64,000 nucleotides of DNA. Source: an uncultured bacterium (GTDB lineage Bacteria; Patescibacteriota; Minisyncoccia; Phycocordibacterales; PALSA-1337). Positions 5,770 through 58,372 of this stretch are shown one piece after another; positions within the stretch are counted from its first letter, which is position 1, and each line of letters begins with the position of its first letter. The notes beneath the pieces were generated by a model that saw nothing but the letters and a program-made list of their open reading frames with translations, did no database searches and was not told the origin of the DNA. The stretch covers positions 175,341 through 239,340 of the forward strand of contig CAWKEA010000005.1 in assembly GCA_963848635.1 (NCBI GenBank), written 5' to 3'. Position numbers and translations under genes: made by a program.

Positions 5770-6612
5770 CTATATCTTGCACATCAACCGGGCCTCGTTG
5801 AGGATCTTGTCTGCCTTGACGCCTTTGACGCCAGCGTCTTCGAGATATCCGGGATATTTGACGAGATCGCGGCACAGGACGATGCCATTTTGGAAGAGGT
5901 TGCGGCGGATTTCGCCGTCGACGGAAGCGAGAATAGTGAAAGGATAGAGCGAAAGCTCCTCGATGATCTGGTGCAAATTGCCTGAATGCGGATAATTCCA
6001 GCCGATCAAGGGGAGTCCCGCGCATTGGGCGTACTTGATGGCTTCGGAAGTGAATTTGGTATTGGTGATGAGCCAGCCTTTCGAGAGCATGCGCTCGCGG
6101 CCGCCAAAGGTGAATTTACGGCTCGCGAGATCCTCGAAGCGCGCTTTGACGTACAGGGCGACTTTCAGATCGGACTTCAGGCCGAATTCATTGTGGAATT
6201 TAGCTTCGACCATATCGAGCTTGTCGTCTTTCCAGGCGACGACATCAATCTCGTGCTGGACGCAGTGGCCTTCGACGATGACATCTGTCGTCGTCTCGTA
6301 CCCCCAGGCCTTGAAGATTTCGGCCACGAATTTTTCGAACGGATAGCCGTTCGGTCCGAGCTCGGCCAAAGCGCGGCGCATGGAATACCGTGCGGCGGCA
6401 TGGTGCAGATTCGACGAGCGGAGGTAATCAAATGCTCGGGCATAGATGAGAGCCGTCGACATGCCGTCTTTTATTTCGCTCTCCACTCTGTCGACGATCT
6501 CCTCGATGGCTTCTTTCGATCCGCCGGCGGCTCGAAGCGATTCAATGAGCTTGTTCTCCTCGAAAAGCTCTTTTTCGCCGTTCGATTTTGTGACATTGAT
6601 GAGGCGATTCAT
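5770..6612 (-). CDS. ATP-cone domain fused to Mrr-like restriction endonuclease domain
   Basis: The N-terminal 'INVTKSNGEKELFEENKLIESLRAAG' is an ATP-cone. The C-terminal 'GHCVQHEIDVVAWKDDKLDMVEAKF' fits a PD-(D/E)xK Mrr_cat core. Confidence 0.65.
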   Translation of the reverse strand: MNRLINVTKSNGEKELFEENKLIESLRAAGGSKEAIEEIVDRVESEIKDGMSTALIYARAFDYLRSSNLHHAAARYSMRRALAELGPNGYPFEKFVAEIFKAWGYETTTDVIVEGHCVQHEIDVVAWKDDKLDMVEAKFHNEFGLKSDLKVALYVKARFEDLASRKFTFGGRERMLSKGWLITNTKFTSEAIKYAQCAGLPLIGWNYPHSGNLHQIIEELSLYPFTILASVDGEIRRNLFQNGIVLCRDLVKYPGYLEDAGVKGVKADKILNEARLMCKI

Positions 6613-6744: not shown

Positions 6745-6772
6745 CTTGACCTATTTCGAGGCATGCTACAAT
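6745..6772 (+). promoter_or_regulatory. Putative sigma70-type promoter for dnaB (TTGACC-N15-tgcTACAAT), ATG at or near +1
   Basis: Read directly. Extended -10 TGnTACAAT. The ATG at 6779 follows 6 nt later. Confidence 0.35.
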
Positions 6773-6778
6773 CAGTGC

Positions 6779-8194
6779 ATGGCAGAGACGACAAAATCTC
6801 CTTACTACAAGACATCCGACCTGCGCATACCGCCGCAGTCGCTCGAGGCGGAGCGCGCTCTCCTCGGCTCGGTGATGATGCGGCCCGAAGTCATCCACGA
6901 GATCATCGATGTCGTCTCAGACAGGACCTTCTATTCGGATCGTCATCGCCTGATCTGGCTCTCTATGCTCGAGCTCCACCAAAAAGCCACGCCGATCGAC
7001 CTGCTCTCGCTCTCCTCGAGGCTCAAGGAAAAAGAACTGATCGAAACGGTCGGCGGCATGACCTATCTGACCGAATTGGTCCAAAGCGTGCCGTCATCGG
7101 CCAACGCGAAATATTACGCGGAGATAATCCAGAAGAAACAGCTCATGCGCGACCTCATCAGCGCCTCCGAATACATCGGCAATCTCGGCTTCGATCAGGA
7201 TGGAGACCTCGAAGAGACATTGGATAAGGCGGAAAAGAGGATATTTGACGTGACCAATTTTGCCGGCAGTCAGCACAAGTTCATCGCTCTGAAAGACACC
7301 CTCGTCGAAGCATGGGAGCGCCTCGAAAAGCTCCACGAGACTCGCGGCGAATTGCGCGGCATACCGACCGGCTACAAGGAGCTCGACAACAAATTAGCCG
7401 GCTTCCAAAAGTCAGACCTTATCATCCTCGCCGCCCGGCCATCCATGGGAAAAACGTCGCTCGCGCTCGACATCGCCCGCAAGGCGGCCGTCCTCCACAA
7501 TGTATCCGTCGGCATATTCTCCCTGGAAATGAGCTCGCAACAGCTCGTCGACCGCATGCTCGCGGCAGAAGCATCAGTCGACGCCTGGAAATTGCGCACC
7601 GGCCATAACTTGTCCATCGAGCACGATTTCAAGGCGATTCGCGACGCCATGGACCGCCTCTCAAAAGCGCCGATCTATATCGACGACCAGGCGGCCAACA
7701 ATATTCTAAAGATGCGCGCCGTCGCTCGCCGGCTCAAGAGCGAGAAAGGCCTCGGCCTTATCGTCGTGGACTACTTGCAATTGATGGTGCCGACGAATGC
7801 GCGCCACAACGACAACATGGTTCAGCAGGTCACTGAGATTTCGCGCTCGCTCAAACAGCTGGCGCGCGAATTGGAAGTGCCCGTCCTTGCCCTATCACAG
7901 CTGTCTCGCGCCGTCGAACAGCGCGGCGAAGGCGGCCGTCCGAAACTATCCGACTTGCGCGATTCCGGTTCCATCGAGCAGGACGCCGACGTGGTCATGT
8001 TCATCCATCGCGAGGACAAATACAACAAAGACTCGGGCAAGCCGAATATCGCCAATATCATCATCGAAAAGCACCGCAACGGCCCGACAGGCACGGTCGA
8101 ATTGTACTTTGACGAGAAGAAAACTACATTCCTTTCCATCGAAAAGGCCGATTTTGGAGATTTTGACAAAGGCGGGAACGATCAGCCATTTTAA
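6779..8194 (+). CDS. dnaB: Replicative DNA helicase DnaB
   Basis: N-terminal 'ERALLGSVMM' followed by Walker A 'ARPSMGKTSLAL' and the RecA-like core. 471 aa. Confidence 0.9.
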   Translation: MAETTKSPYYKTSDLRIPPQSLEAERALLGSVMMRPEVIHEIIDVVSDRTFYSDRHRLIWLSMLELHQKATPIDLLSLSSRLKEKELIETVGGMTYLTELVQSVPSSANAKYYAEIIQKKQLMRDLISASEYIGNLGFDQDGDLEETLDKAEKRIFDVTNFAGSQHKFIALKDTLVEAWERLEKLHETRGELRGIPTGYKELDNKLAGFQKSDLIILAARPSMGKTSLALDIARKAAVLHNVSVGIFSLEMSSQQLVDRMLAAEASVDAWKLRTGHNLSIEHDFKAIRDAMDRLSKAPIYIDDQAANNILKMRAVARRLKSEKGLGLIVVDYLQLMVPTNARHNDNMVQQVTEISRSLKQLARELEVPVLALSQLSRAVEQRGEGGRPKLSDLRDSGSIEQDADVVMFIHREDKYNKDSGKPNIANIIIEKHRNGPTGTVELYFDEKKTTFLSIEKADFGDFDKGGNDQPF

Positions 8195-8247
8195 TAATGT
8201 AAAATTAAAAAATCAAAAGGTAAAATGACATATTAAAATTTAAAAAT

Positions 8248-8556
8248 ATGAAACTATACAAAAATTGGAGTCTTTGGTACTGGATAATCATTTTTGCTTA
8301 TTGGTTTTTTTATCAAATTCCACTATCCAACACTTTTACTCCTAGTACACTAGGAGTTCCAAATTCAGCAGATTTTGTACTCTACGCAATTTCTGATATT
8401 ATCCCCGCTTTCTATATTTGGTTTATCATAAAAATAATTCTCAGTATTTTAAAGAAGATAAAAACTCAACAAAATAAAGTCAATTATTCTATTCTTTTAG
8501 TTTGTGTTATTCTCTCTAGTGTTCTTATTGCATGGTATGTGTTTAAGTTATTTTAA
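8248..8556 (+). CDS. Hypothetical small membrane protein (cassette cargo)
   Basis: 102 aa, three predicted TM helices, very AT-rich codon usage. Confidence 0.45.
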   Translation: MKLYKNWSLWYWIIIFAYWFFYQIPLSNTFTPSTLGVPNSADFVLYAISDIIPAFYIWFIIKIILSILKKIKTQQNKVNYSILLVCVILSSVLIAWYVFKLF

Positions 8557-8577
8557 GTGTGACATAAGAACATCAAA

Positions 8578-8952
8578 ATGGAAAATGACAGAGAAAAATT
8601 CAAAAATGAATTCAAGAAAAGGTTGTATGCTTGGGTGTTACGACTTGTAAAATTCATTGATTCATTAAAGAAAGATTCAACTTCGTTAGTTATTGGCAAA
8701 CAGTTATTACGAAGCGGAACAAGCATTCTTGCCAACTATATCGAAGCACATTCTGCAAGCTCAAAAAGAGATTTCGGTAACTTTTTCAATCATTCACTTA
8801 AATCTGCAAATGAATCAAAGGTCTGGCTTGCAATAATTCGTGATACTGACAAAGGTAACCAGAGAGAAGTATCGTGGCTCTTGAAAGAGTTGACTGAAAT
8901 ATCAAATATCTTTGCTTCAAGTCTATTAACACTTCGAGGTAAAAAGAAATGA
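8578..8952 (+). CDS. Four-helix-bundle protein (TIGR02436-like; 23S rRNA intervening-sequence protein family)
   Basis: 'LVIGKQLLRSGTSILANYIEAHSASSKRDFGNFFNHSLKSANESKVWL' matches the family signature. Confidence 0.7.
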   Translation: MENDREKFKNEFKKRLYAWVLRLVKFIDSLKKDSTSLVIGKQLLRSGTSILANYIEAHSASSKRDFGNFFNHSLKSANESKVWLAIIRDTDKGNQREVSWLLKELTEISNIFASSLLTLRGKKK

Positions 8953-9012
8953 ATATTTTGTCATTTTACATTGTAATTTTCCCTTTTGATTTTTAATTTT
9001 TACATTCTTATT

Positions 9013-9645
9013 ATGGATCCCGTCAACAAACTCATCGAGCTCTTCTCCGAATTCCCCGGCATCGGGCCGAGGCAGGCGCGGCGGTTCGCGTATTTCATTT
9101 TGACGCGCAACAACGGCTTTTTGGATGATTTTACAAGGAATATCGCGGCGGCAAAGAAATCGTTGCGGGTTTGCTCGATGTGCCAGCGCTTCTTTACTTC
9201 TGCGGAGGGTAGACCTCCGCAGGCCGCAAAGACATGCCCCATCTGCTCTGACGACACGCGCGACCAGGCCAGCCTCATGATCGTCGCACGCGACAGCGAT
9301 TTCGAAGCGATAGAAAAGAGCGGCGTCTATCATGGCCTTTATTTCATCCTCGGCGGCAGTGTGCCGATCCTCGAAAAAGAGCCGGAAAAGAGAGTGCGAT
9401 TGGCGGAGCTCAAAAAGCGAGTGCAAGGCGTTGGTCAAGATGTCATCTTGACAGAGATCATCCTCTCTATGAGCGTCACGCCTGACGGCGAGCATACGGC
9501 AGAAGTCGTCAAAGCTTTCCTTGAAAAGTCGATCGACGCTGAAAAAGTCAAAATAACTGTCTTGGGCAAAGGCCTTTCGACGGGAACGGAGCTGGAGTAT
9601 TCTGATACGGAGACGCTCAAGAATGCGCTCAAAAATCGGGCTTGA
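9013..9645 (+). CDS. recR: Recombination protein RecR
   Basis: 'FPGIGPRQARRFAYF' HhH, C4 zinc finger 'CSMCQ...CPICSD', Toprim 'MIVARDSDFEAIEKSGVYHGLYFILGG'. Confidence 0.9.
   Translation: MDPVNKLIELFSEFPGIGPRQARRFAYFILTRNNGFLDDFTRNIAAAKKSLRVCSMCQRFFTSAEGRPPQAAKTCPICSDDTRDQASLMIVARDSDFEAIEKSGVYHGLYFILGGSVPILEKEPEKRVRLAELKKRVQGVGQDVILTEIILSMSVTPDGEHTAEVVKAFLEKSIDAEKVKITVLGKGLSTGTELEYSDTETLKNALKNRA
9434..9452. repeat. REP-like palindrome GTCAAGATGTCATCTTGAC inside the recR CDS (encodes GQDVILT)
   Basis: Perfect palindrome in-frame within recR. Confidence 0.8.
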
Positions 9646-14437: not shown

Positions 14438-14953
14438 TTATTGACGGCTTTTTGGCTCCATATCCTTTGTAAGTTTGAAGACGAGCTTGCCCTTCAATTT
14501 GCCCTGATATTTTGGAGACGACATGAGAGCCAGTGTCTCGTCGAGCCCTTCCACAGCTTCAGGTGATCTCTCTAGCTTGTAATGATTGAGAGCATAGCCC
14601 TGCTTTAAATACTCCTTCAAGACACCTGTCGCCCATATGCGGAATTGAGTGGCTTTTTTGGAATTAACCCGATAACCGACAGCGATAATGGCGTCGAGGT
14701 TATAAAACTTCGTATCTCGTTTTACCTTGCGACCGCTTTCGTTTTGAACTATTCGGAATTTCCGAATAGTTGAGATTTCATCTAACTCATCTGTCATGAA
14801 TATATTTTTCAAATGTTCATTGACTGTTGGAACGCTTATTTCAAACAAGTCGCTGATCTGTGCTTGCGTTGCCCAAATGGTGTCCTTTTCGATATCCGCC
14901 CGCAATTCGACGTTACCATCCTTGTCCTCAAAAATGACGATGTTGTTTTTCAT
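14438..14953 (-). CDS. RhuM-family protein
   Basis: 'KFRIVQNESGRKVKRDTKFYNLDAIIAVGYRVNSKKATQFRIWATGVLKEY' matches RhuM (PF13310). AT-rich island. Confidence 0.75.
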   Translation of the reverse strand: MKNNIVIFEDKDGNVELRADIEKDTIWATQAQISDLFEISVPTVNEHLKNIFMTDELDEISTIRKFRIVQNESGRKVKRDTKFYNLDAIIAVGYRVNSKKATQFRIWATGVLKEYLKQGYALNHYKLERSPEAVEGLDETLALMSSPKYQGKLKGKLVFKLTKDMEPKSRQ

Positions 14954-39809: not shown

Positions 39810-40109
39810 TCATGCAAGCTCGGCGATTTCCCTTTGTACATGTCTCGCATAGTTGATATCTTTACGAGGGATTTTCCAAGCTTTTTTGATAAATCCGTGG
39901 ATCAAATAGATTTTATCGTTCTTAAAGACATATAGGATCCTGATTTGTTTTCTTCCGTGAATCCTCAACTCAAATAAACCATCTCCAAGACACTTTGAAT
40001 CCGGCATAGCAAGTAGATGTCCTTTTTGTTCAAGTAAACCGAGCGACCTGCGAGTTCGTCCAAATGATTCATCGTCAAGACAATTCATAAAACTCTCTAG
40101 ATATATCAT
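39810..40109 (-). CDS. RelE/ParE-superfamily toxin (HigB/Gp49-like)
   Basis: 'LGDGLFELRIHGRKQIRILYVFKNDKIYLIHGFIKKAWKIPRKDI' matches the Gp49/HigB fold. Start placed at MIYLESF. Confidence 0.7.
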   Translation of the reverse strand: MIYLESFMNCLDDESFGRTRRSLGLLEQKGHLLAMPDSKCLGDGLFELRIHGRKQIRILYVFKNDKIYLIHGFIKKAWKIPRKDINYARHVQREIAELA

Positions 40110-40201
40110 CGCAAGGAGATAATCGTTTGTAACAAAAGGAATCAAAGCGATCATGGCAACCACTGGTAGCGCTTCACCGATTATTTTAAGGATTTTCATC
40201 G

Positions 40202-40348
40202 TCATTTTAAGTCTTTCACCATCTCCTCATAGCACCCTTTGCATAGATGCCATTTCCGCACCATACCATCCTTGTCAGGTGGCGACAGCAAAATGCCGCC
40301 AAAGTCGATTAATTCTTTCTTGCACCTGTCGCAGATTGGTTTGATCAT
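40202..40348 (-). CDS. Small zinc-ribbon protein
   Basis: 48 aa. 'CDRCKK...CKGC' two CxxC pairs. 4-nt overlap with the upstream gene. Confidence 0.45.
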   Translation of the reverse strand: MIKPICDRCKKELIDFGGILLSPPDKDGMVRKWHLCKGCYEEMVKDLK

Positions 40349-47482: not shown

Positions 47483-48775
47483 ATGTCACTATTCACAAAA
47501 GTAAAAGACAAGATAACCCACAAGGAAGGAGAAGCCGAAAGCCAAAAGCTTAAAACAGAAAGCAGAGAAGAGACAAAGAAAGACAAAGCAGACGAGCCGA
47601 CAGCGGCGGCCGATGAAAGATCGACTGAAAAAGCGCCGAAAGCGGCCAAGACGAAGAAACCCGCATCGAAAGACACGAAAGCCGCAGATGACGCGGCAAA
47701 GGCAAAAGCCGCGACGATGATGGGCAAGCTTTTGACGGAGTCGAAAACTCCCCCATCAGAAGGCGACATCATCGAGGGTCCCGTCATCAATATCGACAAG
47801 ACCGCCGTATATGTCGACCTTGCTCCGTTCGGAACCGGCATCATTTTCGGCAAGGAATTCCTGACCGCGCGCGACATCATACGGAACATAAATGTCGGCG
47901 ACACCGTAGCGGCAAAGATCGTCGGCTCGGACAATGAAGACGGCTACATCGAGCTCTCTCTCAAGGAAGCCCGCCAAGCGATCATCTGGAGCGAGGCGGA
48001 GACAGCGATCAAAAATCGCACGATCCTCAACCTGCCAGTCACGGAAGCCAACAAAGGCGGCCTCATCATACAATGGCAAGGCATATCGGGCTTTTTGCCT
48101 GCTTCCCAGCTGAAACCAGACCACTATCCGCGCGTGGCTGACGGCGACAAGGAAAAGATCTTCGATGAGCTGAAGAAGCTCGTCGGCAAGAATCTGTCGG
48201 TAGCCATCATCACCGCCAGTCCAAAGGAGGGCAAGCTCATCTTCTCGGAAAAGAGCCCCGGCGAGAAAGACAAGGAAAAGATGACCGGCAAATATGCTGT
48301 CGGCGACGAGATAGAGGGCGAAGTGACCGGCGTCGTCGATTTCGGCGCTTTCGTCAAGATCGAAGACAATCTGGAAGGCCTCGTCCACATCTCCGAGATC
48401 GATTGGTCTCTCGTCGAGAATCCGAATGCGTACGTCAAAGTCGGACAAAAGATCCGGGCCAAGATAATCGACATCAAGGACGGCAAGATCTCGCTCTCGC
48501 TCAAGGCCCTCAAGGAGAACCCATGGGTCGAAGCGGCAAAGAAATACAAGAAAGACATGAAAGTCGACGGCGTCATCATCAAATTCAACAAGCATGGCGC
48601 GCTCGCCTCGATCGAAGAAGGCGTGGCAGGCCTCGTCCATGTCTCGGAATTCGGCTCCGAGGAAAAGCTCCGAAAGAACCTCGAACTCGGCAAAGTCTAT
48701 CCGTTCAAGATAACCGTCTTCGATGCCAAGGAGCAAAAGATGGCCTTGTCGTTCGCAGGGAAAAAATCTATCTAA
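47483..48775 (+). CDS. rpsA: S1 RNA-binding domain protein (ribosomal protein S1-like, four S1 repeats) with ~85-aa K/A/E-rich N-terminal extension
   Basis: Repeated 'G..V.G.V..I...GAFVKI..LEGLVHISEI' S1 motifs. Confidence 0.8.
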   Translation: MSLFTKVKDKITHKEGEAESQKLKTESREETKKDKADEPTAAADERSTEKAPKAAKTKKPASKDTKAADDAAKAKAATMMGKLLTESKTPPSEGDIIEGPVINIDKTAVYVDLAPFGTGIIFGKEFLTARDIIRNINVGDTVAAKIVGSDNEDGYIELSLKEARQAIIWSEAETAIKNRTILNLPVTEANKGGLIIQWQGISGFLPASQLKPDHYPRVADGDKEKIFDELKKLVGKNLSVAIITASPKEGKLIFSEKSPGEKDKEKMTGKYAVGDEIEGEVTGVVDFGAFVKIEDNLEGLVHISEIDWSLVENPNAYVKVGQKIRAKIIDIKDGKISLSLKALKENPWVEAAKKYKKDMKVDGVIIKFNKHGALASIEEGVAGLVHVSEFGSEEKLRKNLELGKVYPFKITVFDAKEQKMALSFAGKKSI

Positions 48776-56418: not shown

Positions 56419-58293
56419 TTATTCCCCCGCCCGCATCATCTTTACAAAAACCTCCTGCGGTATATTAACCGAACCGTGCTCTTTGAGGCGCTTGCGGCCC
56501 TCTTTTTGCTTTTCGCGGAGCTTCATCTTGCGGGTGATGTCGCCGCCGGAAAGCGTGCCTGCGGCGTCCTTTTTCTTGCCAGAAACCGTGCGCGACGAGA
56601 TGATGCGGCCGAGAGCCTTGGCTTGGACCTTGAACGTAAAGAGCTCTCGCGGCAAAATTTTATAAAGCTTTTCGACGACTTCCTCGGCCTCCTGCTCGGC
56701 ACGGCGGCGCGAGACGACACGAGTGAAAGCGACCACAGGCTCGTCGGCTACAAGGATATCCATTCGGACGACATCGGCCGGACGGCTGTCGGTTATGTCA
56801 TACGAGATCGAGGCATAGCCGGACGAAACGCTCTTTGCCTCATCGAAAAAATTACGCATGAGCTCGCGCAAAGGCATGCGCAGAGTGAGCATCGTCCTGT
56901 TGTCGCCAAAATTATCCGTGCCTGTTATCTCCCCTTCATGATCGTAGAGCAATTTCATTATTCCTCCGATATACGCCGGCGGCGTGATTATCTTCATGGT
57001 GACGATCGGTTCGACCACTGACTTGACCTCGTTCTCGTCCGGAAAAAGAGCAGGCGAATAGATCGTGACCATTTTTCCATCCTTTTTTTCGACAATGTAC
57101 GTGATCGACGGCGTAGTGACGACAAGGTTCAAGTTGAATTCGCGATGCAGGCGCTCGGTTATTATCTCCATATGCAACATGCCGAGAAAGCCGCAACGAT
57201 AGCCTTTGCCCAACGTGCCCGAAGCCTCTTCTTCATAGGTAAAGGAAGAATCAGACAAGCGCAAACGGCCAAGAGCCTGACGCAAGAGCGCGAGATCGTC
57301 CTGCGATTCTGGATAGACAGACGCCCAGACGACGGGCCGAGGGCTCTGATAGCCGGGCATAGGCGCCTGCGTATCCTTGAGCGACGCAACGGTGTCTCCG
57401 ACAGACGCGACGCCCGGCTCCTTTATCCCTGTGACGATATAGCCGATCTCGCCCGCTGAAAGCGATTCCATCGGGACATTGTCAGGAGAAAAGATGCCGA
57501 CCTCGAGCGCTTCGAACGCGCGCTTTGAATTCTTGAAGATGAGCTTGTCGTGACGGCGAACCGAGCCCTGCATGACGCGCACATAGACGATGACGCCGGT
57601 GTGATTGGAATATTGGAAGTCAAAGATGAGGGAGCGGAAGGCTGAATTATCTGAGCTTCGCGACGGAAGAGTCTCGCCCTGCGTCGGCGGCGGCACCCGC
57701 TTTATCACCTCTTCCAACAGATGCGCCACGCCTTCGCCTGTCTTGCCGGAGACTTTCAAGATGTCCTCAGGCTTGCAGTCAAGAAGCTGGCAGACTTCAT
57801 GGACGACTTCTTCGGTCATGGCAAGCGGCGAGTCGATCTTTGAAACCGTCGGGATGATGGTGAGACCTGCTTCTCGTGCCATCGCGAGCGTCGTCAAGGT
57901 CTGCGCTTGGACGCCCTGCGTCGCATCGACAAGAAGAATGGAACCTTCGACGGCCTTCAGCGCGCGCGAGACTTCATAGGAAAAATCGATGTGGCCGGGC
58001 GTGTCGATGAGGTTGAGGATGTATTCTTGATCATCTTTGCCTTCAATCACTGGTCCTTGATCTTCAGTTTTGAATTTTGAGTTTTGAGCTTTCAGTTTCC
58101 ATTTCATTCTGACCGGTTGCATCTTTATCGTGATCCCCCTCTCGCGCTCGAGCTCCATGCTGTCGAGGACTTGCTCCTGCATCTTGCGCTTTTCGATGGT
58201 GCCGGTTATCTCGAGCAGACGATCGGCAAGAGTGCTCTTGCCGTGGTCGATGTGAGCTATGATGCTGAAATTGCGTATATGAGATGAATCCAT
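56419..58293 (-). CDS. lepA: Elongation factor 4 (LepA) with short in-frame low-complexity insertion in the G domain
   Basis: 'IIAHIDHGKSTLADRLL', 'DTPGHIDF', C-terminal LepA-specific domain. Insertion 'KWKLKAQNSKFKTEDQGPVIEGKDDQ' before 'YILNLIDTPGH'. Confidence 0.9.
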   Translation of the reverse strand: MDSSHIRNFSIIAHIDHGKSTLADRLLEITGTIEKRKMQEQVLDSMELERERGITIKMQPVRMKWKLKAQNSKFKTEDQGPVIEGKDDQEYILNLIDTPGHIDFSYEVSRALKAVEGSILLVDATQGVQAQTLTTLAMAREAGLTIIPTVSKIDSPLAMTEEVVHEVCQLLDCKPEDILKVSGKTGEGVAHLLEEVIKRVPPPTQGETLPSRSSDNSAFRSLIFDFQYSNHTGVIVYVRVMQGSVRRHDKLIFKNSKRAFEALEVGIFSPDNVPMESLSAGEIGYIVTGIKEPGVASVGDTVASLKDTQAPMPGYQSPRPVVWASVYPESQDDLALLRQALGRLRLSDSSFTYEEEASGTLGKGYRCGFLGMLHMEIITERLHREFNLNLVVTTPSITYIVEKKDGKMVTIYSPALFPDENEVKSVVEPIVTMKIITPPAYIGGIMKLLYDHEGEITGTDNFGDNRTMLTLRMPLRELMRNFFDEAKSVSSGYASISYDITDSRPADVVRMDILVADEPVVAFTRVVSRRRAEQEAEEVVEKLYKILPRELFTFKVQAKALGRIISSRTVSGKKKDAAGTLSGGDITRKMKLREKQKEGRKRLKEHGSVNIPQEVFVKMMRAGE

Positions 58294-58372
58294 GAAAGTG
58301 TCTCGTATACTAGCAGAAAACATTGAAAAAAGCAGGTTTTACAAGGTGGCGCCTCAATCGCGAACAAGGTAG

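Follow-up and report, generated by a model that had tools for sequence, protein, structure and literature searches.

The 64,000-nucleotide stretch analysed here (hereafter the window; contig CAWKEA010000005.1 of assembly GCA_963848635.1, positions 175,341 to 239,340, from an uncultured bacterium of the Patescibacteriota) carries, in the spacer between its dnaB and recR genes, a gene for a four-helix-bundle (FHB) protein of the type known from 23S rRNA intervening sequences (IVSs), with an array of tandem heptamers on either side, the two arrays being opposed to each other. The segment is almost certainly an inserted member of a family of FHB cassettes, and the best explanation, which we consider probable, is that of a promoterless 23S-IVS-type cassette placed in sense orientation in the dnaB–recR spacer. 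FHB genes between inverted heptamer arrays recur in at least five phyla, with units specific to each lineage.

The dnaB stop codon (TAA) occupies 8192-8194 and the recR ATG lies at 9013, leaving a gap of 818 nt with a GC content of 0.29 over its whole length, compared with 0.45 in the last 148 nt of dnaB and 0.54 in recR. An earlier interpretation of the letters alone, made without database searches (the sequence-only reading), had described an AT-rich insertion between two genes of normal GC content, and both parts of that description stand. A DnaB search yielded 80 Patescibacteria/Paceibacteria genomes (64-81% identity), in 77 of which recR comes directly after dnaB in the same orientation; the gap between them has a median of 29 nt (100 nt or less in 53), and these 77 empty sites include all 11 closest genomes, where the gap measures -17 to 45 nt. 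Since dnaB is directly followed by recR in the relatives, the window segment is an insertion, and removal of 8196-9006 would leave a 7-nt spacer (T + CTTATT) similar to theirs. Independent assemblies of two further datasets (Logan ERR10755936 and JGI 3300014838) contain this junction as well, which is therefore no assembly artefact. The left boundary proposed previously, at 8196 and 1 bp after the dnaB TAA, is correct, whereas the right one falls at 9006 instead of 9007, so that 6 nt (CTTATT) rather than 5 separate the right-arm end from the recR ATG. Six of the closest relatives have a 17-nt overlap of dnaB and recR (ATGGATCCGATTTCTAA or a variant of it), the shared bases encoding the last DnaB and the first RecR residues; an overlap of this kind would have had to be split or bypassed by the window insertion.

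The FHB gene (8578-8952, + strand) encodes a protein of 124 amino acids with an isoelectric point of 10.0 from the Avd/S23p/23S-rRNA-IVS protein family, as matches to PF05635 (E 4e-17, 62.8 bits, cut-off 33.8) and TIGR02436 (E 2e-21, 76.4 bits, cut-off 24) and a phmmer match to PDB entry 2RLD (E 2e-14), which holds five chains, indicate. The AlphaFold2 model (predicted local distance difference test score 93) has four helices at residues 2-29, 34-59, 63-89 and 95-121, and Foldseek places it nearest to 2RLD (TM-score 0.78-0.80), followed by 2GSC and then by Avd (4DWL/8UB7, TM-score 0.68-0.74). The assignment of this second open reading frame (ORF) to the four-helix-bundle proteins of the 23S IVS type, already made from the letters, is thereby confirmed by both profiles, by 2RLD and by the predicted fold. 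Over 100 cluster representatives share 73-88% identity with the window FHB, and no close relative was found in viral contigs. The ratio of nonsynonymous to synonymous substitution rates (dN/dS) is 0.03 between the window gene and its nearest homologue, with a median of 0.12 over the pairs with a definable dS, which indicates strong purifying selection on the FHB.

The left arm AATGTAAAATTAAAAAATCAAAAGG (8196-8220) has a single reverse-complement partner in the window, at 8982-9006 with 2 mismatches, for which a shuffled-sequence control gave 0 matches, and gapless extension lengthens the inverted arms to 64 nt with 80% complementarity (8186-8249 / 8953-9016). What had been taken for terminal inverted repeats (TIRs) does bound the segment on both sides, but lag-7 autocorrelation identifies these arms as opposed heptamer arrays, and no classical TIR of the transposase type is present. 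The outer left arm (L1, 8196-8247, + strand) is matched by a 38-cassette nhmmer model at 8184-8247 (model positions 7-70, E 4e-5), forms an inverted repeat with 8953-9016 and comprises about seven units, beginning AATGTAA, AATTAAA, AAATCAA, AAGGTAA, AATGACA; the right arm (R, 8953-9006, + strand) comprises about seven to eight, namely ATTTTGT, CATTTTA, CATTGTA, ATTTTCC, CTTTTGA, TTTTTAA, TTTTTAC and a final ATT. The units of the window copy are degenerate, being readable in 8196-8231 and 8953-9006, and because the arms are tandem heptamer arrays the repeat search returned inverted repeats in several registers. Read in reverse complement, R corresponds to the left arm together with the opening ~28 nt of the FHB gene, and the internal aatgtaaaatgaca duplication noted earlier in the right arm is indeed there, but it is not specific to this copy: it is found throughout the family as the part of the right arm complementary to the first FHB codons.

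The window copy is composite. L1 consists of a complete left arm and about 30 nt of a dead FHB 5′ end, in which ATGGAA has become AGGTAA and the start codon is destroyed; then come an orphan segment of 321 nt, an inner partial left arm (L2, 8558-8607, + strand, a 78% direct repeat of 8198-8247), the intact FHB gene and R. L2 overlaps the live FHB start codon (ATCAAAATGGAAAATGACA) and covers the cassette model from position 32 on (nhmmer 8569-9015 = model 32-471, E 2e-108). The orphan segment (8248-8568), AT-rich and flanked by a direct repeat of 39-50 nt, contains ORF1 (8248-8556, + strand), which encodes 102 amino acids with three hydrophobic stretches. ORF1 has no match in Pfam or NCBIfam, no DNA or protein similarity in any related locus compared and, among 5.8 billion proteins, no homologue but itself, and is therefore only a putative gene; its derivation from a decayed FHB gene was considered and rejected, blastn, tblastx and profile search having given no similarity. 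Of the membrane protein with three transmembrane helices that the sequence-only reading had placed here, the ORF and its hydrophobic stretches remain but its standing as a gene is putative, and the supposed two-gene cargo gives way to a composite in which ORF1 lies between the outer left arm and the canonical cassette. Beyond L2, no further arm copies (E <= 0.01) occur in the window or in the ~700 kb of the 80 related dnaB loci, so that the search for other TIR copies proposed at the outset came out negative nearby, while the same termini accompany homologous genes at ~30 other junctions in other genomes. Outside the cassette the window has only two sites of lag-7 periodicity. One (58060-58105) lies within the coding region of lepA (EF4; − strand gene, 56419-58323) and holds about five TTTTGAN heptamers, the unit of the right arm, which encode part of a ~17-amino-acid insertion (…MKWKLKAQNSKFKTEDQGPVIEGKDD…) just ahead of the DTPGH motif; the other (47532-47566, with units GAAGCCG, AAAGCCA, AAAGCTT, AAAACAG, AAAGCAG) lies near the 5′ end of a + strand ORF (47483-48775) for an S1-domain, ribosomal-protein-S1-like protein.

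The locus also varies between conspecific strains. In sample ERZ27248494, one contig (L147) matches the window at 99.8% identity and stops precisely at 8247, where L1 has its final base, and another (L146) is 99.3% identical from 9011 on and carries, directly upstream of recR and without a right arm, the 3′ part of an S-adenosylmethionine (SAM)-methyltransferase gene (L146 3-518, Methyltransf_11). The segment 8248-9010 (+ strand) is exchangeable between strains and L1 has most probably been retained in the methyltransferase strain, so that the strain-variable unit is not 8196-9007, as first supposed, but 8248-9010, with the left arm apparently staying behind. The closest methyltransferase homologues are 63% identical and found in unrelated contexts; the full alternative allele was not recovered. 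Taken with the composite window copy, this allele marks the inner edge of the left arm as a breakpoint that has been used twice.

With its empty sites and this strain polymorphism, the dnaB–recR junction undergoes turnover, to which a further locus adds. Locus L080 (5370-5811; DnaB 66% identical) has at this junction an FHB gene of a different subfamily, 29% identical to that of the window and bounded by its own, unrelated inverted repeat of 35 nt (91% complementary), and this is the only other FHB gene in the ~700 kb of related loci. Loci L018, L020-L023, L025 and L027 carry at the junction ORF-less inverted-repeat insertions of 70-210 nt, some of them heptamer-like, with units such as CGAAGTC, CGAAGTT, CGAAGCT, CGAAGAG in L027 and CATTTGAC, CATTAAC, CATTGAC in L025. 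The lag-7 scores of ORF-less gaps reach 0.81 in L027, 0.76 in L025 and 0.71 in L020, L023 and L042, and a value of 0.75 is not attained by any of 15,420 control windows from dnaB. By eye, the L042 gap ends in what looks like a solo right arm, but this likeness is not significant.

Exact-protein look-ups and a metagenome scan brought together ~40 distinct cassettes (52-88% protein identity) that share one architecture, namely a left arm from about -25/-35 to +28 relative to the ATG, which includes the start and first nine codons, an FHB gene of 123-124 codons, and a right arm of ~55 nt directly after the stop. They occupy ~30 types of junction in other genomes: secD–secF, perM–class-I aminoacyl-tRNA synthetase, ABC ATPase–FtsX permease, PilB–PilC, sugar transferase–glycosyltransferase, MbhD/E–MnhB (Mrp subunits), UvrD–KsgA, PrgI–type IV secretion system (T4SS) protein and tRNA-Gly–tRNA-Thr, as well as sites upstream of DnaJ and of cysteinyl-tRNA synthetase and downstream of rpoB and of tRNA-Glu; none of these insertion junctions is present in the window. 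Wherever both neighbours are called on one strand the FHB gene is in sense (33/33), and none is antisense between co-oriented genes. Spacing is regular too: mostly, 17-27 nt separate the stop codon of the preceding gene, at the left arm's outer margin, from the FHB ATG, and 44-67 nt separate the FHB stop from the ATG of the following gene, just past the right arm. Direct repeats of constant length do not flank the arms of the ~40 cassettes, and the target-site duplication that the sequence-only reading suggested looking for did not materialise, either consistently across these cassettes or in the window, whose flanks read TAAT on the left and CTTATT on the right.

In 39 cassettes the lag-7 autocorrelation of the arms is 0.57-0.59, compared with 0.30-0.31 at lags 3-4 and 0.25 in a coding control, and the arms are opposed arrays of ~7-8 tandem heptamers, (TTCAAAA)n on the left and (TTTTGAA)n on the right. 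Between cassettes the non-coding arms are 73-75% identical, as against 60% for a composition-matched control, 74% at codon positions 1+2 and 41.5% at FHB third codon positions. Because the arms are conserved despite saturated synonymous sites (median proportion of synonymous differences, pS, 0.81), these comparisons identify them as functional sequence under purifying selection. Two local variants were noted along the way. In the secD–FHB–secF left array of L086/L087 (2906-2995), an extra GC-rich element of ~90 nt with its own inverted repeat is present relative to L085, and this insertion is flanked by an apparent 5-bp duplication (ATCAA). In L131 (2501-2878) and L104 the cassettes lie downstream of rpoB, with upstream proteins 87% identical; the right arm of L104 is normal, and that of L131 is lost, the next gene overlapping the FHB stop by 4 nt.

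Outside the Patescibacteria, a tblastn search of the FHB against plasmids gave 31 records, of which 14 loci were analysed, and FHB genes with flanking inverted heptamer arrays were found in Cyanobacteria, Bacteroidota, Chloroflexota and Spirochaetota. Their contexts include DUF1156–FHB–Swt1-HEPN, DrmD–FHB–MmeI, helicase–FHB–methylase, resistance-nodulation-division (RND) adaptor–FHB–RND permease and csx2..FHB–cas1, and the genes mostly lie between co-oriented operon genes. The unit is TAGATTT in Gloeocapsa and on Chlorohelix p2, AAGGATG on Chlorohelix p1, CAGATTG in Nostoc, GAAAGNG in Treponema, AATCCCC and TCGTAAA in Planktothrix, ACTGGTC in Euhalothece and, identical to that of the window, TTCAAAA/TTTTGAA in Aulosira. 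Scoring each spacer of the 14 loci by its best 28-nt window of lag-7 periodicity (threshold 0.75), we found 22/28 FHB-adjacent spacers at or above threshold (median 0.86) against 3/27 of the other spacers of those loci (median 0.48; Mann-Whitney p = 4e-9, Fisher p = 4e-7). An exact reverse-complement word of 10-29 nt is common to both flanks in 12/14 loci (8 nt in Euhalothece, none in Pseudanabaena). The sequence of the arms changes wholly between lineages while their complementarity is kept, which is the best argument that pairing matters, and the constant unit length of seven argues for a common mechanism of recognition or generation. The arrangement DUF1156–FHB–Swt1-family HEPN occurs in two phyla (Gloeocapsa and Chlorohelix), both times with TAGATTT, which suggests that a defence operon was transferred along with its cassette. 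In Anabaena cylindrica (L159, 2530-4621) and Pseudanabaena (L160, 2995-5916), FHB genes with heptamer arrays are neighbours of cas1 and cas2 or lie between the two, the Anabaena gene being antisense and placed between cas2 and cas1; this agrees with an older publication in which 23S_rRNA_IVP is listed near CRISPR loci (PMC3936711).

Among known systems, the IVSs of 23S rRNA with an S23p ORF, as in Leptospira and Coxiella burnetii, come closest, and the window cassette agrees with them in size, composition, layout of termini with an enclosed ORF, and protein family: they are ~430-440 nt long, more AT-rich than their host, have complementary termini that form a long stem around a PF05635 ORF, lie in sense in the host transcript, are sporadically distributed and lack a transposase. 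That of Coxiella measures 428 nt, is AT-rich, has a terminal stem of 28 bp and is cut out by RNase III; how it arose and what it does are described as unclear, and according to an old proposal its ORF serves mobility (PMC4990558). In bacteria of the candidate phyla radiation (CPR), which includes the Patescibacteria, 23S_rRNA_IVP ORFs have been reported at scattered sites in 16S and 23S insertions (PMC11270868). IVSs sit in helix 9, 25 or 45 of 23S rRNA, whereas the window cassette lies between protein genes, and those of its relatives between tRNA genes too; its termini are tandem heptamer arrays that include the start codon of the ORF, and the ORF is under strong purifying selection where that of Coxiella is decaying. 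No rRNA was found in the dnaB–recR region or in 20 related loci, which have tRNAs only, and an Rfam scan of the region gave chance-level matches only. The element would thus work like an IVS without being one, since it is not located in rRNA.

The arms for their part resemble the short tandemly repeated repetitive (STRR) arrays, which are likewise tandem 7-nt intergenic units, often within operons, often in convergent inverted pairs and lineage-specific; with at least three contiguous 7-nt units in an intergenic spacer, the cassette arms qualify as such arrays. Published heptamer repeats, reported to be abundant and unexplained, include GGGAATC in Xanthomonas, GGGGATT in Nostoc, TAACTGA in Beggiatoaceae and TTTTGAA/TTCAAAA in Nostoc 7120 (PMC4692102, PMC4679880, 10.1101/2022.06.06.494920), the last being the unit of the window and of the arrays around the Aulosira FHB gene. 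Those papers describe the arrays without an associated gene and do not mention the FHB/IVS protein, whereas in the window opposed arrays enclose an FHB gene. In the literature outside subscription journals, our search found no link of PF05635 or TIGR02436 to heptamer repeats and no such cassettes between protein-coding genes or outside rRNA. The locus presents an element of IVS type away from rRNA, within an operon of essential genes, and the general link of FHB proteins with inverted heptamer arrays to which it points seems not to have been described before.

Other systems share single features. Correia elements of Neisseria and ERIC (enterobacterial repetitive intergenic consensus) sequences are hairpin-forming intergenic MITEs (miniature inverted-repeat transposable elements) that are co-transcribed and cut by RNase III; they are non-coding, present in many copies per genome and make target duplications. 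The window element has inverted termini, a site inside an operon and a predicted long RNA stem in common with them, but it carries a conserved gene, is single-copy in the window and has no target duplication. Like integron cassettes, it is promoterless-looking, compact and in sense, with strain-variable cargo beside a fixed site and an orphan ORF of the kind common there, and its two ORFs are each preceded by a copy of one repeat; unlike them, it has inverted repeats at both ends, and its arms do not by eye resemble GTTRRRY core sites. No integrase or attC-type site was identified at the window, where no search aimed at attC or IntI was made. Avd belongs to the ribonucleoprotein of diversity-generating retroelements (DGRs), in which it makes contact, as a basic pentamer, with RNA duplexes and stem-loops (bioRxiv 10.1101/2023.10.23.563531). 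The FHB is of the same superfamily and has the same fold, a basic four-helix bundle found as a pentamer in crystal structures; Avd acts on RNA in which distal segments pair. Their sequence identity is only ~12%, and no reverse transcriptase or template/variable repeat pair occurs in the cassette, which has ORF1 and FHB only, or in the flanking dnaB and recR.

The dnaB and recR genes appear to be co-transcribed and the cassette looks promoterless: a promoter scan found promoter-like hexamers that point outward from both arms, the right-hand one unable to serve the conserved recR start, and a terminator scan of the cassette found none. The cassette would then be transcribed by read-through from dnaB in the host operon, and the arrays in this transcript would pair into an imperfect duplex of 45-60 bp in which the FHB start codon is concealed and the dnaB stop comes to lie beside the recR start. 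By analogy with 23S rRNA IVSs, RNase III may cut the arm duplex and free the cassette RNA, leaving the flanking cistrons unharmed; such a cut would be harmless between cistrons, between tRNAs and in surface helices of rRNA, which are the places where FHB genes occur. Just as Avd binds RNA stems, an FHB pentamer may attach to the heptamer arrays or to the duplex that they form. In DNA, the arrays could serve as recombination-prone ends through which cassettes or other cargo are gained, exchanged and lost, and the ORF-less hairpins of inverted heptamer arrays could be derivatives or landing sites. We rate the steps of RNase III cleavage, array binding and array recombination, taken together, at slightly under an even chance. 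In support of arm pairing, both minimum free energy and centroid folds pair the outer arms (z = -3.5 for the window transcript, -3.3 for locus L083).

Several observations weigh against this picture. The arms hold no RNA-specific signal, G-U-type mismatches numbering 69 and A-C-type 73. A left arm is complementary to its own right arm at a score of 60.9 and to foreign right arms at 56.8, its own being the best in 4/39; the difference is significant by permutation and its effect is small. Left arms also resemble one another more than they match their own partners, and the comparison of own with foreign arms fits sequence-specific recognition at least as well as simple pairing. In three plasmid loci (Anabaena, at cas2/cas1, Euhalothece and Aulosira) the FHB gene is antisense to its neighbours. 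The retention of L1 in the methyltransferase strain is read from two separate contigs of one metagenome. Lastly, five cassettes share the PrgI–T4SS-protein junction, with FHB identities of 50-71% that track those of the flanking host proteins (27-49% and 39-64%), which implies long vertical inheritance with the FHB better conserved than its neighbours; the cassette may thus be a resident functional module more than an active mobile element.

That last point leads to the most serious of the alternatives, namely that the cassette is a resident, host-beneficial post-transcriptional module in which arrays and FHB set the relative expression, processing or translational coupling of the neighbouring genes, the dnaB–recR copy being another recruited site. 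The conservation of the FHB beyond that of flanking host genes and its co-divergence with them at the PrgI junction speak for it, as do the selection on the arms and the placing of the upstream stop and downstream start where the predicted stem has its base. Expression in Nostoc 7120 is influenced by TTTTGAA/TTCAAAA arrays that lie upstream of genes, and a binding partner has been postulated (bioRxiv 10.1101/2022.06.06.494920), and a translational role has been proposed for TAACTGA arrays (PMC4679880). At dnaB–recR, however, the cassette is dispensable, since 77 relatives lack it at this junction and a conspecific strain has another gene in its place; the occupied junctions have no common function, and the stop/start geometry is what any insertion into a spacer of a few bases would produce, so that a host module is possible but on balance doubtful. 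That the genes are ancestral and were lost in the relatives, or that the locus is an assembly chimera, is extremely improbable: FHB-type material does occur at the same junction in L080 and possibly in L042, but 77 sites are empty, those of all closest relatives included, the L080 FHB is only 29% identical and has unrelated arms, the GC content is 0.29 in a host of ~0.5, and the junction is present in three independent assemblies.

The view of the sequence-only reading, a non-autonomous, MITE-like TIR transposon with passenger genes that is moved by a transposase encoded elsewhere, draws on the inverted termini, the AT-richness, the lack of an internal transposase, which we can confirm for the cassette, the empty sites in relatives and the many insertion contexts, and the use of the left arm's inner edge as the breakpoint in two alleles would suit it as well. 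Nevertheless it is unlikely, as ~40 junctions have no consistent target-site duplication, further arm copies are absent from the window and from ~700 kb of related loci, the ORF forms the conserved core (dN/dS 0.03-0.12), the arms remain conserved in spite of synonymous saturation, the orientation is strictly sense (33/33), and no known transposase family explains termini made of heptamer arrays with lineage-specific units in five phyla. A decaying MITE in particular would hardly agree with purifying selection on the FHB and its long vertical co-divergence with host genes at the PrgI junction. Mobility through RNA, in which an Avd-like FHB would join a reverse transcriptase encoded elsewhere and the arm-closed transcript would be copied and integrated, could account for the strict sense orientation by an RNA intermediate; the FHB has the Avd fold, and in DGRs the RNA template is flanked by a long-range duplex, with Avd contacting RNA duplexes and stem-loops (10.1101/2023.10.23.563531). 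Yet the cassette has neither a reverse transcriptase nor a template/variable repeat pair, and exchange of cargo at the arm edge at the DNA level needs no RNA step, which makes this route very unlikely.

The genes on either side of the cassette are the replicative helicase gene dnaB upstream (6746-8194, + strand; TIGR00665, E 1e-162, PF03796/PF00772), for which the start called in other assemblies is the ATG at 6779, and recR downstream (9013-9645, + strand; TIGR00615, E 2e-42, RecR_HhH/Toprim_4/RecR_C). Elsewhere the window has further AT-rich islands with accessory genes at 14438-14953, 39810-40205 and 5770-6612, which hold a RhuM-family fragment, a Gp49-like (HigB-type) protein and an ATP-cone + Mrr_cat restriction-endonuclease-like protein, the gene of the last lying directly upstream of dnaB on the opposite strand.

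Returning to the reading of the segment as an inserted IVS-type cassette, we tentatively extend it, at odds somewhat below even, to the whole family: FHB proteins (S23p/IVS/Avd-like, TIGR02436) may be the missing partners of bacterial heptameric tandem repeats, and FHB genes between opposed arrays a widespread, undescribed class of self-contained cassettes sited where RNA cleavage is harmless, that is, in intercistronic spacers, tRNA spacers and surface helices of rRNA. The 23S IVSs would then be a special case and the ORF-less array hairpins non-autonomous derivatives, and the protein would bind its own arrays and promote spread, maintenance or the processing of host transcripts. IVSs have been recognised for more than 25 years, and S23p is without function or mechanism (PMC4990558); the same has held until now for the very large TIGR02436 family and for the intergenic heptamer repeats (STRR, GGGAATC, TAACTGA, TTTTGAA). 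For S23p, TIGR02436 and heptamer repeats alike, a single proposal would now be available, namely that the protein recognises the arrays. For genome annotation, it matters that these cassettes split operons, for example rpoB/rpoC, secD/secF and those of ABC transporters, defence systems and cas genes, and may alter their expression.

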